From contig JAZTWA010000001.1 of NCBI GenBank assembly GCA_045635585.1, positions 28 to 64,027 of the forward strand: a DNA stretch of 64,000 bases. Reading direction: 5' to 3'. Position 1 is the first letter of the stretch. Each line of letters opens with the position of its first letter. The notes under the pieces were generated by a model. That model was not told the origin of the DNA and ran no database searches. It saw only the letters and a list, made by a program, of their open reading frames with translations. Shown piece by piece: positions 14,340 to 17,560 of the stretch. The position numbers and the translations under genes were made by a program. Source of the DNA: Candidatus Enterousia sp. (lineage in GTDB: Bacteria; Pseudomonadota; Alphaproteobacteria; Rs-D84).

Positions 14340-14348
14340 TGATATAAT
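14340..14348 (+). promoter_or_regulatory. Extended -10 element TGaTATAAT upstream of paralog 1
   Basis: TGATATAAT lies about 27 nt upstream of the ATG. The same element recurs before paralogs 2 and 3. Confidence 0.45.
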
Positions 14349-14374
14349 ACGCTAATAAAAAGAAAGGAAAATAT

Positions 14375-15382
14375 ATGAAAATCGGTTTTTTTGGTACGGT
14401 TTCATCTCTTTTTGTGTTGATGTTTGCAAATTCGCATGCTGCGGAAATTTTGCCCTTGTCAACGGCTATGGAAAACGCGCGCAAGACATGTTATGTCTTG
14501 TTTGACAACGTTGTAGGTTATGAAAGGTCAAGTAAAGCCGCGGTGGTGTCAGGTGGTGTTGGTACTGCGTTGCAAACGGGGGCAACTGTTGTGGGCGCTG
14601 TTGGTGTGGCCCAGGAAAATAGATACGATGCAGTTGCGAAACAGCGTAACCAGTTGACAAAAGAAATAAGAAACTTAAAGAAAACTGATGGCGAAATGAT
14701 TGGCGAAGCAACCACGCTTGGTTATGAAACTGTTGATAATTCCGATGAGATTGCAGAAAAAGAAACAGAGAAAAAAGCGCTTCAGCAAAAGTTGCGTAAA
14801 ATGAATAATGGTCCAACGAATGGTGCCACTATAACAAAGGTTGCGATGGATCTGACTGGTGCTTTTGTTAACTTTTTATCTCTTTTGGCGACCGGTACGG
14901 GCCCTGGGTTCAGTGACTTTGTGGATTCTGTTCAAGCGTGTTCAAATACCATAAACGAAATTCCTGCGGCTGTGATGCAGTATAAATTAGACACTGGCGT
15001 TGATGATCAGAGTGAAACGGTTTCTCAGGCTTTGCGCGTTGTTGAAACGTGTGGTCAATATGATTTGGCCAAAGTGCAAAAATTACGTGGTTATACAGAG
15101 GCATCTATGATTGTTGGCGCGGTTGGTGTTGTGGGCGGTATTGTTGGTGGTGCTTTATCTGCTTCATCAATATCTGATGGGCCAAACAATTCAAAATCAG
15201 ATGCTGACAAAGATAAGCGTTTGGCGACGGCTGGTACGGCGGTTTCTGGTGTTGCAACGGCGGCATCTGCGACGGGGCTTGCGCTTAATGCGGTGCAATT
15301 AAAGGCGGTCCAAGAGTTGACCGAAATTTCTGTCCAGTGCGCAGAAGCCTTGGGGTATGATTGGAATGCAGACGTTGATTAA
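14375..15382 (+). CDS. Secreted Gly/Ala-rich four-Cys protein, tandem paralog 1 (335 aa)
   Basis: Signal peptide ending ANSHAA. Conserved blocks ARKTCYVLFD, VDSVQACSN..IPAAVMQYKLDTG, ETCGQYDLAKVQKLRGY, TAGTAVSGVATAASATGLALNAVQLKAVQEL and QCAEAL are shared with the next two ORFs. Confidence 0.8.
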   Translation: MKIGFFGTVSSLFVLMFANSHAAEILPLSTAMENARKTCYVLFDNVVGYERSSKAAVVSGGVGTALQTGATVVGAVGVAQENRYDAVAKQRNQLTKEIRNLKKTDGEMIGEATTLGYETVDNSDEIAEKETEKKALQQKLRKMNNGPTNGATITKVAMDLTGAFVNFLSLLATGTGPGFSDFVDSVQACSNTINEIPAAVMQYKLDTGVDDQSETVSQALRVVETCGQYDLAKVQKLRGYTEASMIVGAVGVVGGIVGGALSASSISDGPNNSKSDADKDKRLATAGTAVSGVATAASATGLALNAVQLKAVQELTEISVQCAEALGYDWNADVD

Positions 15383-15387
15383 AAAAA

Positions 15388-15409
15388 GTCGCCAAATGGC
15401 GGCTTTTTT
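15388..15409 (+). terminator. Rho-independent terminator of paralog 1
   Basis: GTCGCC-AAAT-GGCGGC followed by a T-run. Identical to the terminator of paralog 2. Confidence 0.8.
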
Positions 15410-15423
15410 ATTTGGGATGTATA

Positions 15424-15432
15424 TGATATAAT
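15424..15432 (+). promoter_or_regulatory. Extended -10 element TGaTATAAT upstream of paralog 2
   Basis: TATGATATAAT lies about 21 nt upstream of the ATG. Confidence 0.45.
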
Positions 15433-15452
15433 GCACAAAAAAGAGGGGTTGT

Positions 15453-16385
15453 ATGAAATTTATTGTGTGTATGATTGTATCATTGTTTGCGATATTGTCG
15501 TCTGCAAATTCACATGCGGCGGGTAATTTAGATTTGATATCTGCGGCGGCAAACGCACGTAAAGAATGTCATGTGTTGTTTGATAGGCTTGTGGGACGCA
15601 AAGGTGCTGCGGGTTGGGCAGTTGGATTAAGTGCACTTGGTACAGGTTTAGAGGCGGGGGCAACTGTGGCTGGTGCTGTTGGGGCGCATAATGGGCGCCA
15701 GTATGAAGAAACAGCGGAAGAAATACGTCAAAATAAAGCAGAGATTAATAGATTAAGGGCCGCAAATGTTGAAGGTATTGATGCGTTATATGATGATAAA
15801 AGTGATGGTCAAACACAGAAAAATTTAGCTGTTGAAAATTCGACGACCCAGACAAAAATTACACTGGATACGGTTGCAATATTTGCAAATGCTTTGTCTG
15901 TATTGGCGTCTGCTATAGTTGGAAATGCTTTTAGTGAATTGGTAGATTCTGTTCAGGCGTGTTCAAATGCGGTAAACGAAATTCCTGCGGCTGTGATGCA
16001 GTACAAATTGGATACAGGTGTCAATGATCAAAATGCAACGGTTGCCCATGCGTTACGCATTGTTGAAACGTGTGGTCAATATGATTTGGCCAAGGTACAA
16101 AAATTACGTGGTTATACAACTGCGTCTATGATTGTTGGGGCGGTTGGTGCAACAAGCGGTATCGCCAGTGGTATCGTGACATCCAAGGCGGCGGGCGAAG
16201 ATCGTCATTATGTTGAAACAAAATTATTGACTGCTGGTACGGCGGTTTCTGGTGCTGCAACGGCAGCATCTGCGACGGGGCTTGCACTTAATGCGGTGCA
16301 ATTAAAGGCGGTCCAAGAGTTGTCCGAAATTTCCGCCCAGTGTGCAGAGGCTTTGGAATATGATTTGAATGCAGGCATTGATTAA
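15453..16385 (+). CDS. Secreted Gly/Ala-rich four-Cys protein, tandem paralog 2 (310 aa)
   Basis: Signal peptide ending ANSHAA. The C-terminal half is near-identical to paralog 1; the central region is divergent. Confidence 0.8.
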   Translation: MKFIVCMIVSLFAILSSANSHAAGNLDLISAAANARKECHVLFDRLVGRKGAAGWAVGLSALGTGLEAGATVAGAVGAHNGRQYEETAEEIRQNKAEINRLRAANVEGIDALYDDKSDGQTQKNLAVENSTTQTKITLDTVAIFANALSVLASAIVGNAFSELVDSVQACSNAVNEIPAAVMQYKLDTGVNDQNATVAHALRIVETCGQYDLAKVQKLRGYTTASMIVGAVGATSGIASGIVTSKAAGEDRHYVETKLLTAGTAVSGAATAASATGLALNAVQLKAVQELSEISAQCAEALEYDLNAGID

Positions 16386-16390
16386 AAAAA

Positions 16391-16412
16391 GTCGCCAAAT
16401 GGCGGCTTTTTT
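16391..16412 (+). terminator. Rho-independent terminator of paralog 2
   Basis: GTCGCC-AAAT-GGCGGC followed by a T-run. Confidence 0.8.
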
Positions 16413-16426
16413 ATTTGCGAAACGTA

Positions 16427-16435
16427 TGATATAAT
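16427..16435 (+). promoter_or_regulatory. Extended -10 element TGaTATAAT upstream of paralog 3
   Basis: TATGATATAAT lies about 26 nt upstream of the ATG at 16461. Confidence 0.45.
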
Positions 16436-16460
16436 ATCACAGATAATGAAGGTGTTTTGT

Positions 16461-17531
16461 ATGAAGGTTGTTTTGTCTGGGTTTGTTTCATTGTTGACTG
16501 TGTTTATATCTGTGGATTCGCATGCGTCATCATCAGATTTGTTGACTGTGATAAATGATACACGCACCACGTGTGGTAAGTTTTTTGAAGATGTTATTTC
16601 TGGACAGAATGCTGCGACTGCGGCTGTGGGTTTGGGTGCAATTGCTACAGGGGCGAATGCGATTGGTACGGTTGTTGGTGGTGTTGCAACGGCGGCGGAA
16701 TCTGATTATGAAAAAAAGAAACGGAATCGTGATTTGATAAATGATGCCAAAAAATCTAACGGTCAATCTGGTGCCAGTGTTCAGAATACGGGTGCATATG
16801 TGCAAGATTATGAACATGATGGCGAAGGTTATTTTTATGATGAAACTGTGCTTGAATTCAGTTTGAACCAAGATAAAGACGCGGTTACGTATTCCAAAGA
16901 AGGGCTTAGAAACGCGAATAGAGATTTGGAAGCTGCACGAAATAAGATGAATAAATTAACGAATGCGCAGTTAGGTGCGGGTGTTGCTGGTTTTTTTGCT
17001 AATGCATTTGCAGCATGGGCGGGTGGCAGTGTTGGGTTTGATAAATTGATATCAGGGATGGATTCTTGTATGGATTCTGTGTCAAAGATTTCGTCTGCCC
17101 AGATTCAGTATAGGCTAGAAACGGGCGCAGATGAAACAGATGCGCTGTATGCCCAGGCAACAAAAATTATAGAGACATGTGGTCAATATGATTTGGCCGA
17201 TGTGCAAAAGCTGCGTGGATATTCGACGGCATCTGCAATTGTCAGTGCGGTTGGTGCGGTTGGTAGCGTAACAGCAGGTGCATTGGCGGGTGCGGCTGGT
17301 GGCAAATTTGATGCGTCTGCACCTGGTTTAAAAAAAGATGTGGATGCAGATAAATATGGAAAAAATATGCTGGTGGCTGGTACGGCAGTATCTGGTGTTG
17401 CAACGGCGGCATCTGCGACCGGGGTCGCGCTTAATGCGATTCAATTAAAGGCGGTTCAAGAATTGGCGGATATTACATCAGGGTGTGCAGGTGCTTTGGG
17501 CTATGAATTTGGAACTGCGGATCAGGAATAA
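16461..17531 (+). CDS. Secreted Gly/Ala-rich four-Cys protein, tandem paralog 3 (356 aa)
   Basis: Start chosen by alignment with the RBS/ATG of paralog 2 (GGTGTTTTGTATG). Signal peptide ending VDSHA. The same four Cys and the blocks ETCGQYDLADVQKLRGY and AGTAVSGVATAASATGVALNAIQLKAVQEL are present. Confidence 0.8.
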   Translation: MKVVLSGFVSLLTVFISVDSHASSSDLLTVINDTRTTCGKFFEDVISGQNAATAAVGLGAIATGANAIGTVVGGVATAAESDYEKKKRNRDLINDAKKSNGQSGASVQNTGAYVQDYEHDGEGYFYDETVLEFSLNQDKDAVTYSKEGLRNANRDLEAARNKMNKLTNAQLGAGVAGFFANAFAAWAGGSVGFDKLISGMDSCMDSVSKISSAQIQYRLETGADETDALYAQATKIIETCGQYDLADVQKLRGYSTASAIVSAVGAVGSVTAGALAGAAGGKFDASAPGLKKDVDADKYGKNMLVAGTAVSGVATAASATGVALNAIQLKAVQELADITSGCAGALGYEFGTADQE

Positions 17532-17537
17532 GAAAAA

Positions 17538-17560
17538 ACCGCCAGTCGGCGGTTTTTTTG
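17538..17560. terminator. Bidirectional terminator shared by paralog 3 (+) and rpmH (-)
   Basis: ACCGCC-AGTC-GGCGGT flanked by an A-run on the left and a T-run on the right. Confidence 0.75.

Follow-up and report, generated by a model that had tools for sequence, protein, structure and literature searches.

Tandem genes for exported four-cysteine proteins in a gut alphaproteobacterium belong to an undescribed family whose relatives are coupled to varied exported partners

Introduction

Here we describe three tandem genes, hereafter the trio (copies 1, 2 and 3), in DNA from Candidatus Enterousia sp. (assembly GCA_045635585.1, contig JAZTWA010000001.1, positions 28-64,027 of the forward strand); the whole stretch of 64,000 nucleotides (nt) is called the window. 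The genes encode proteins with predicted signal peptides, four invariant cysteines and four helices rich in small residues, and appear to be a species-specific tandem amplification of an undescribed family. Outside the window species, most family genes instead form the first half of a tightly coupled two-gene cassette, whose second gene encodes one of several kinds of exported protein.

Housekeeping proteins of the window share 85-95% identity with their counterparts in "Candidatus Enterousia" and gut alphaproteobacterial metagenome-assembled genomes (MAGs), with GyrA at 94.5% and ValS at 86%. The organism belongs to the GTDB order Rs-D84, whose genomes are smaller than 1 Mb and lack most biosynthetic pathways, and for which dependence on partner organisms has been proposed (PMC12306168). 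Rs-D84 bacteria (Candidatus Enterousia) are widespread in ruminant, horse, bird and human guts (PMC12306168).

Three paralogs with separate predicted transcription units

The initial annotation of this DNA took three tandem open reading frames (ORFs) of 335, 310 and 356 amino acids (aa) to be paralogs. This is borne out: identity to copy 1 is 56% for copy 2 and 40% for copy 3, and the conserved blocks that the annotation quoted are present as stated when the paralogs are compared. The array is flanked upstream by valS and an acyl-ACP thioesterase gene and downstream by the convergent rpmH, then gyrA and merR (Table 1).

Each copy is preceded by an intrinsic terminator hairpin (-12.6 to -16.3 kcal/mol, z -5 to -6.5 by RNA folding). 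An extended -10 element (TGnTATAAT) then lies about 20-25 nt 5' of the start codon, followed by a ribosome-binding site. Because a terminator and an extended -10 element separate the genes, the trio reads as three monocistronic cassettes rather than an operon; judged by these signals, each copy is its own transcription unit. The repeat unit consists of the 3' coding end plus the intergenic region (207 nt), and units 1 and 2 are 90% identical. For copy 3 we prefer the start codon at 16461 to that of the longest ORF, both because the -10 box (16430-16435) lies only 10 nt before the ATG at 16446 and because a ribosome-binding site, GAAGGTG (16448-16454), precedes the ATG at 16461.

Table 1. Features of the trio and of the virB cluster, in window coordinates
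Feature	Positions	Strand	Details
Terminator hairpin ending the acyl-ACP thioesterase gene (13560-14288); start of first cassette	14289-14319	+	-12.6 kcal/mol, z -6.5
Copy 1 extended -10 promoter element	14340-14348	+	TGATATAAT; kept before all three copies
Copy 1	14375-15382	+	335 aa; predicted signal peptide at residues 1-22
Copy 1 cysteines 39, 189, 226, 322	14489, 14939, 15050, 15338	+	
Copy 1 Gly/Ala helices	14534-14605, 14816-14899, 15095-15166, 15224-15295	+	
Copy 1 hypervariable tip	14612-14809	+	
Terminator hairpin after copy 1	15381-15409	+	AAAAAAAGTCGCCAAATGGCGGCTTTTTT; -16.1 kcal/mol, z -6.1
Copy 2 extended -10 promoter element	15424-15432	+	
Copy 2	15453-16385	+	310 aa; shortest variable tip of the trio
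Terminator hairpin after copy 2	16384-16412	+	identical to the hairpin after copy 1
Copy 3 extended -10 promoter element	16427-16435	+	
Copy 3	16461-17531	+	356 aa from ATG 16461; longest variable tip of the trio; longest ORF 16446-17531 (361 aa)
Bidirectional terminator hairpin common to copy 3 and convergent rpmH	17533-17558	both	
rpmH	17570-17722	-	identified via Ribosomal_L34 at the syntenic position in sister locus L001
virB10/TrbI	43476-45917	-	812 aa; Cys-rich C-terminal tail (...CCAGEIFTDMGEMGFNCCPEGGGDCF...)
virB9/CagX	45968-47491	-	weak C-terminal SPOR-domain match
virB8	47525-48430	-	

A two-block architecture with an expandable tip

The protein layout proposed in the initial annotation holds in all of its parts. 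Each copy opens with a predicted Sec-type signal peptide (...ANSHA/A or ...VDSHA/S, with a Lys-containing n-region and a hydrophobic core) that has no lipobox. Exactly four cysteines (C1-C4) follow in every mature protein, an extra cysteine of copy 2 lying within its signal peptide. The Gly/Ala-rich segments are four Gly/Ala/Ser/Thr-rich helices, hereafter zipper helices (copy 1 residues 54-77, 148-175, 241-264 and 284-307), and the hypervariable middle (about residues 80-145) shows the lowest conservation and differs in length between proteins. All three copies keep the four cysteines and the four helices, and score 355-446 bits against the family profile.

The same features define the wider family: a signal peptide, four cysteines (kept in 272 of 284 members), four small-residue helices arranged as two blocks, and, within the first block, a variable tip. 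Every one of them is present in the trio. The most conserved family columns are those of the four helices, with the consensus MAGINTAVTGVGT..G.GA in helix 1, LGNWRTGLLAG.TATN.AGA.IAG.NKVD in helix 2, RA.GA..SS.VGA.TG.AGTITSA.ANSD in helix 3 and KEKNLNTASNVLAG..T.AS..ATVFNATQISAIKK in helix 4; the least conserved interval is that between helices 1 and 2. Block 1 runs C1, 14 residues, helix 1, tip, helix 2, 14 residues, C2, and block 2 runs C3, 15 residues, helix 3, loop, helix 4, 15 residues, C4, with spacings counted from conservation-derived helix boundaries. When the profile of the N-terminal half, tip removed, is compared with that of the C-terminal half, the two match at 95% probability (E = 2.8e-8) with cysteine on cysteine and helix on helix; column shuffles give E >= 0.025.

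The tip is the part that grows. It spans about 35-85 aa in the window copies, has a family median of 63 aa, and reaches 350-450 aa in the longest members (P0092, P0120, P0132, P0135 and P0155, 571-708 aa in all), where the expanded region between helices 1 and 2 is coiled-coil-like. Two other members, P0131 and P0154, carry Pro/Thr/Val-rich spacers after the signal peptide.

Could the four zipper helices simply span the inner membrane, with the cysteines in the periplasm and the coiled coil and second loop in the cytoplasm? Each helix is about 24 residues long, and this topology would put every one of the four cysteines in the periplasm. In the trio, the third zipper helix has a Kyte-Doolittle score of 1.6-2.0, a level met by only 7% of the family, and there are weak, composition-driven matches to MamC and the V-ATPase c-subunit. 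Family-wide, however, the helices are marginally hydrophobic: the median best 19-residue score is 1.13-1.46, compared with 2.07 for the hydrophobic hairpin of the large partner protein described below, and 1.6 is reached by 1-23% of members in any one helix. Arg and Asn are conserved in helices 2 and 4 (LGNWRTG, NLNTASN), and the free energy of insertion, crudely summed, comes to +2.2 to +6 kcal/mol. The weak hydrophobicity and positive insertion energy make retention in the producer's inner membrane unlikely, and a fast-evolving cytoplasmic coiled coil of 35-450 aa would be hard to explain. We consider integral inner-membrane proteins an improbable identity for the trio.

The helices also resemble glycine zippers, which occur in the helices of membrane channels and rings such as the VacA N-terminus and ATP synthase c-subunits. 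Small-xxx-small spacing recurs in the conserved helices, for example G-x3-G-x3-G in MIVGAVGVVGGIVGG, and there is a weak, composition-driven match to the V-ATPase subunit K model (E = 0.028, far below the model threshold). The trio helices differ in being flanked by Cys-bearing helices and in being much less hydrophobic than true transmembrane zippers.

An undescribed family of gut Alphaproteobacteria

An exhaustive profile search returned 455 representative clusters (50% identity), 190 of them at E <= 1e-30 and all without names. Homologs of the paralogs reach E = 1e-208, and together with the 455 clusters this is far beyond chance. A GTDB search with one genome per species gave 133 loci with a relative, 80 of which were kept for analysis. 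Of these, 79 come from gut Alphaproteobacteria, proteobacterial or Enterousia MAGs; the other is a contig filed under Muribaculaceae. The family is often multi-copy, with two to four loci per MAG. Together with four copies from a sister assembly, the trio makes up a separate clade, whose identity to the rest of the family is only 25-29%.

The initial annotation had not recognized the family, and the databases do no better: we found no significant match in Pfam, NCBIfam, PHROGs or PDB sequences, nor by Foldseek in the PDB. Scans of the trio and 89 family members against Pfam, NCBIfam and PHROGs gave only sub-threshold matches driven by composition, and those of the family and its large partner were to coiled-coil families, DUF6944, DUF7937, MamC and V-ATPase subunit K. 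Three family profiles, whole-protein and single-block, found nothing relevant among PDB sequences at E <= 10, and a single-block search meant to reveal annotated kin or relatives with one block recovered nothing but fragments of this family.

Structure prediction gave a similar picture. AlphaFold with eight sequences reached a predicted local distance difference test score (pLDDT) of 47; with 89 sequences the model was all-helical, with a mean pLDDT of 59.6 and confidence only in the Cys-bearing core (residues 28-55, 170-238 and 305-328). Foldseek with this model, confident in its core only, found no PDB entry at E <= 0.001, the top match being AhlC (E = 1.2, TM-score 0.11). By these comparisons neither the described families nor the solved structures include a relative that can be detected, and the finding is new at the level of protein family and of cassette. 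We know of no earlier description of the block architecture or of the coupled cassette described below, and these searches returned none.

Rapid change between sister assemblies

A second assembly, ENA ERZ28633680 (TONG22-1 scaffold_5, locus L001), represents the same species: ValS is 99.5%, GyrA 99.2% and the thioesterase 100% identical. Its locus carries four tandem copies (10001-14230), whereas the window carries three. The third of these (12081-13085) is chimeric: its signal peptide is that of copy 2 and its body resembles copy 1, which points to recombination between paralogs.

Between the two assemblies, the ratio of non-synonymous to synonymous substitution rates (dN/dS) is 0.33 for copy 2, 0.34 for copy 3, and 1.45 for copy 1, the last resting on a single sequence pair with 42 non-synonymous and 9 synonymous changes. 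Seven flanking genes lie at 0.00-0.09, so the contrast with the trio is large. "Variable surface protein" was among the comparisons offered in the initial annotation; fast evolution, copy-number change and the length-variable tip fit the variable part of that label, and its surface part enters below as a proposal.

Relatives are coupled to varied exported partners

In 64 of 78 family genes outside the window species, the stop codon overlaps the next start codon (ATGA), whatever the downstream gene. Every product coupled in this way begins with a predicted signal peptide, and at least nine partner types occupy the downstream slot across relatives. The family and partner profiles show no relation to one another. 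Four partner types, the large one described next and three shorter ones, share an N-terminal region and diverge after it; the other types lack that region. Family members group by partner type. In nine relatives, two of them split genes, the next gene is encoded on the opposite strand, and clustering by partner type scores eight orphans.

The commonest partner, at about 50 loci, is an exported Cys-rich protein of 900-1800 aa, typically about 1000 aa (for example in the cassette of L037, 9989-14217). It has a region of about 430 aa with 16 invariant cysteines and a repeated YEFxFDD / VDFVFDD motif, a strongly hydrophobic hairpin of 40-60 aa (median score 2.07), and a variable C-terminus that sometimes carries HExxH. 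Scans of the large partner against Pfam, NCBIfam and PHROGs stayed below threshold and were driven by composition, and its sole match among PDB sequences was to the tongue of HblL1. That match links a profile of the central region to PDB 7nmq, Hemolysin BL component L1 (E = 1.9e-7), and spans the HblL1 hydrophobic tongue and the helices following it. It is specific to residue order: the forward profile scores 31.9 bits, the reversed one -8.3, and block-preserving shuffles at most 13.8. A search in the reverse direction returned 10 ORFs out of 5021, every one of them a partner protein, with E = 3.9e-4 for the best and 0.04 or weaker for the others. Two partner sequences also match the SseC translocator family (1.3e-6). 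The HblL1 tongue itself is extended, Gly/Ala-rich and centered on proline, with two predicted membrane-spanning segments (PMC8065917).

Other partners in the same slot include a Tlde1/YkuD-type L,D-transpeptidase-like protein and trypsin-like proteases. The Tlde1/YkuD L,D-transpeptidase-type domain is known from an antibacterial effector family of the type VI secretion system; partners with this domain lie in L063 (10558-11625), L065, L038 and L080. Trypsin-like proteases appear in two loci with tandem cassettes after gyrA-merR (L062, 9959-13765; L070, 2871-8067), each comprising a family member with a 288-aa partner and then a divergent family member with one or two trypsin-like serine proteases.

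This organization in relatives resembles polymorphic toxin and effector cassettes with a conserved upstream helper gene, as in Neisseria MafA-MafB and CdiB-CdiA. As there, a conserved upstream gene is tightly coupled to a variable exported downstream protein, with Tlde1/YkuD-like, trypsin-like and HExxH-bearing partners and a shared N-terminus in four types. The differences are that the family has no homology to the helper families, no immunity-like gene was recognized downstream, and partner-less copies occur. The trio, without any downstream cargo, does not have this organization, which is found in the relatives.

The partner's tongue bears on a further comparison. The initial annotation had likened the trio to tripartite alpha-helical pore-forming toxins such as Hbl/Nhe and AhlABC/SmhABC, in which case the copies would each supply one component (A, B or C) of a true ClyA-family toxin and assemble in sequence into a lytic pore. 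Those systems likewise comprise several adjacent paralogous components of about 35-45 kDa, with Sec signal peptides in the Bacillus members, and are all-helical with Gly/Ala-rich hydrophobic segments. The trio is three tandem paralogs of about 31-36 kDa with Sec signal peptides, as in Bacillus Hbl/Nhe (PMC8065917), is predicted to be all-helical with marginally hydrophobic Gly/Ala helices, and has AhlC as its top, though not significant, Foldseek match; elsewhere the usual partner carries the HblL1-like tongue.

As a claim of membership the comparison nonetheless fails. No ClyA, Hbl or Nhe profile matched the trio or the 89 family members at E <= 1, the PDB sequence searches with family profiles gave no such match either, and the AhlC match, found with a model confident in its core only, lies at the E value and TM-score given above. 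With the HblL1-like tongue profile no copy exceeds 4 bits, which is no higher than the reversed controls reach, and we rejected the idea that its Gly/Ala helices are tongues of the HblL1 type. The layout differs as well: four weakly hydrophobic helices in two Cys-flanked blocks, as opposed to one tongue between two tail helices, along with four invariant cysteines and a hypervariable middle that changes length. All copies have the same hydrophobic layout, whereas Hbl and Nhe components show a pattern of 0, 1 and 2 predicted transmembrane segments (PMC8065917). Finally, the trio forms three separate predicted transcription units instead of an operon, and copy number is 3 or 4 depending on the assembly. 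We regard a true tripartite toxin as quite unlikely. The comparison is not empty, for the usual coupled partner in relatives does have an order-specific match to the Gly/Ala-rich, Pro-centered Hbl L1 tongue (PMC8065917), although that partner is a Cys-rich protein of about 1000 aa and not a ClyA fold. In function, the family may yet prove to be one variant among the alpha-helical membrane-active systems.

Coupling to exported partners also suits a quieter role. Family members could act in the periplasm as chaperone-like escorts or assembly factors, keeping exported partners that are hydrophobic or Cys-rich in solution and never becoming surface-exposed themselves; the trio's partners would then be encoded elsewhere in the genome. 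The ATGA overlap in most relatives and the grouping by partner type both fit, and the strongly hydrophobic hairpin of the large partner would require shielding. A parallel exists in a modeling study, which speculated that HblB shields the HblL1 tongue (PMC8065917). Chaperones are normally conserved, however, and here dN/dS is 0.33-1.45 and the hypervariable middle extends to 450 aa. Members also occur without partners, namely the nine relatives with an opposite-strand neighbor and the trio, and neither a partner-type protein nor the partner N-terminal domain was found in the 64-kb window or the 21-kb sister locus. An escort role is in our estimate rather unlikely, while clearly less so than the inner-membrane and tripartite-toxin identities.

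Genomic setting and the virB cluster

The trio appears to be a lineage-specific array in a new position within a cassette-prone region, since in relatives the thioesterase gene directly adjoins rpmH and gyrA with no array between, and canonical cassettes lie nearby, after merR in L062, L068 and L070 and near gyrA in L044. L044 is the closest Enterousia relative, and its canonical cassette (3174-7234) sits beside the shared gyrA-merR neighborhood. The window has at that position (22994-26007) three unrelated minus-strand genes, encoding proteins of 252 and 242 aa and a subtilase (Peptidase_S8; 24682-26007) with no obvious signal peptide.

Conserved neighbors as functional partners were considered and rejected: apart from the coupled gene, the family is surrounded by varied housekeeping genes, and no neighbor recurs in more than 11 loci, a count reached by gyrA and merR. 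Suggestive neighbors are limited to two kinds, at four loci each. A gene for a DsbA-like thioredoxin is the immediate upstream neighbor of the family gene in L038, L065 and L080; in L033 it sits four genes upstream. In L003, L037 and L041 the cassette is directly preceded by a gene for a large serine recombinase, and in L010 this gene is found two genes upstream and encodes 518 aa with Resolvase, Recombinase and Zn_ribbon_recom domains. Its proximity raises the possibility that some of the cassettes are mobile or invertible.

The window also encodes virB8, virB9 and virB10 (43476-48430, minus strand), parts of a type IV secretion system (T4SS). This cluster is followed not by virB11 or virD4 but by two small ORFs and a Stealth-family gene (41137-42216, minus strand) with CR1, CR2 and CR4 regions, of a type annotated as capsule-type hexose-1-phosphate transferases. 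Among its hypotheses the initial annotation had listed pilus-associated proteins of the VirB5 or VirB2 kind, and the trio could then be VirB5-like tip proteins or VirB2-like pilins, amplified and diversified. Tandemly amplified, positively selected surface components of T4SSs are known from host-dependent Alphaproteobacteria, as with Bartonella TrwL/TrwJ and the VirB2 paralogs of Anaplasmataceae. The trio is like these in several respects: small, tandem, predicted-exported and predicted-helical paralogs in a host- or partner-dependent alphaproteobacterium, with copy-number variation, elevated dN/dS and T4SS genes within the window.

Beyond the presence of these virB genes, the pilus idea finds no support. 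No VirB5, TrbJ, VirB2 or TrbC profile matched the trio or the 89 family members. The trio lies 26 kb from the virB genes, between the thioesterase gene and rpmH/gyrA, and we rejected linkage to the T4SS because the window's VirB8, VirB9 and VirB10 are singleton clusters, without a homolog within 10 kb of a family gene in the 80 related loci; the neighbor counts above point the same way. Size and architecture differ too. VirB2/TrbC pilins are about 100-120 aa with two hydrophobic helices, whereas the trio proteins, with four weakly hydrophobic helices, have 310-356 aa, more than VirB5 or VirB2 family members. Among all explanations weighed here, a T4SS component is the one we find least credible.

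Interpretation

We tentatively favor the reading that the trio proteins are exposed, membrane-associating cell-contact proteins, amplified in this species as stand-alone units. They would be exported by Sec and probably oxidized in the periplasm. Each block could form a helical hairpin whose base is closed by a disulfide (C1-C2 and C3-C4), and the four zipper helices may pack as a tight base. Such a base would be too weakly hydrophobic to be held in the inner membrane and would suit oligomerization and conditional membrane association. The tip of the first hairpin, a putative hypervariable coiled coil, would be the exposed, fast-evolving contact surface.

In the relatives, the ATGA overlap would allow the family protein and its exported partner to be made in a fixed ratio. 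The family member of such a canonical cassette could serve as a binding, anchoring or delivery subunit for a membrane-inserting or enzymatic partner, and the cassette as a whole may be a cell-contact, membrane-attacking system of a partner-dependent bacterium. In the window species the gene seems to have been amplified instead, giving three units that are transcribed independently and probably strongly, and whose zipper helices are more hydrophobic. Because a partner gene is absent at the trio locus and the units are independent, the trio most likely acts alone; the paralogs might form homo- or hetero-oligomers, at the cell surface or after release.

Several observations weigh against this reading. 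AlphaFold gives pLDDT below 50 for the zipper helices and the tip, so the packing of the hairpins stays conjectural. The reversed C-terminal half aligns with the N-terminal half nearly as well (E = 5.5e-7) as the forward one does (E = 2.8e-8). This points to a shared palindromic block layout and leaves the disulfide pairing unfixed; on the same control we dropped internal duplication as a proven origin of the two blocks. The dN/dS of copy 1 is not significantly above 1, which makes relaxed constraint possible. Grouping by partner type may reflect orthologous loci rather than co-evolution. The trio has no coupled partner, with a terminator after each copy and the array followed by rpmH and gyrA, and its clade is only distantly related to canonical members; a function derived from the cassettes may therefore not transfer to it.

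Export raises one more point against exposure at the surface, as our analysis identified no route across the outer membrane. T4SSs can carry Sec-exported, disulfide-bonded proteins over that membrane, as Ptl does for pertussis toxin. By analogy, a T4SS is one conceivable route that the family proteins could take.

A bolder version of the proposal can be stated, and we think it doubtful, on a par with the escort role. The family and its partners would be a new Sec-dependent, disulfide-stabilized, alpha-helical membrane-attack or delivery system of Rs-D84, used for attaching to, perforating or feeding on cells. The window trio would then be self-sufficient pore-forming or membrane-docking subunits whose hypervariable coiled-coil tips track changing targets.

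Significance

The architecture of the family is new and has no structurally characterized relative: it consists of two blocks flanked by cysteines, which may form Gly/Ala-zipper hairpins, the first with an expandable tip. Even if the proteins prove to be no more than helpers in the periplasm, the analysis would define a large family that lacks annotation and a two-gene cassette that is conserved. Being multi-copy, fast-evolving, predicted to be exported, and coupled in relatives to tongue-bearing and to peptidoglycan- or protein-cleaving partners, the family is a testable candidate for the missing cell-contact machinery of Rs-D84.

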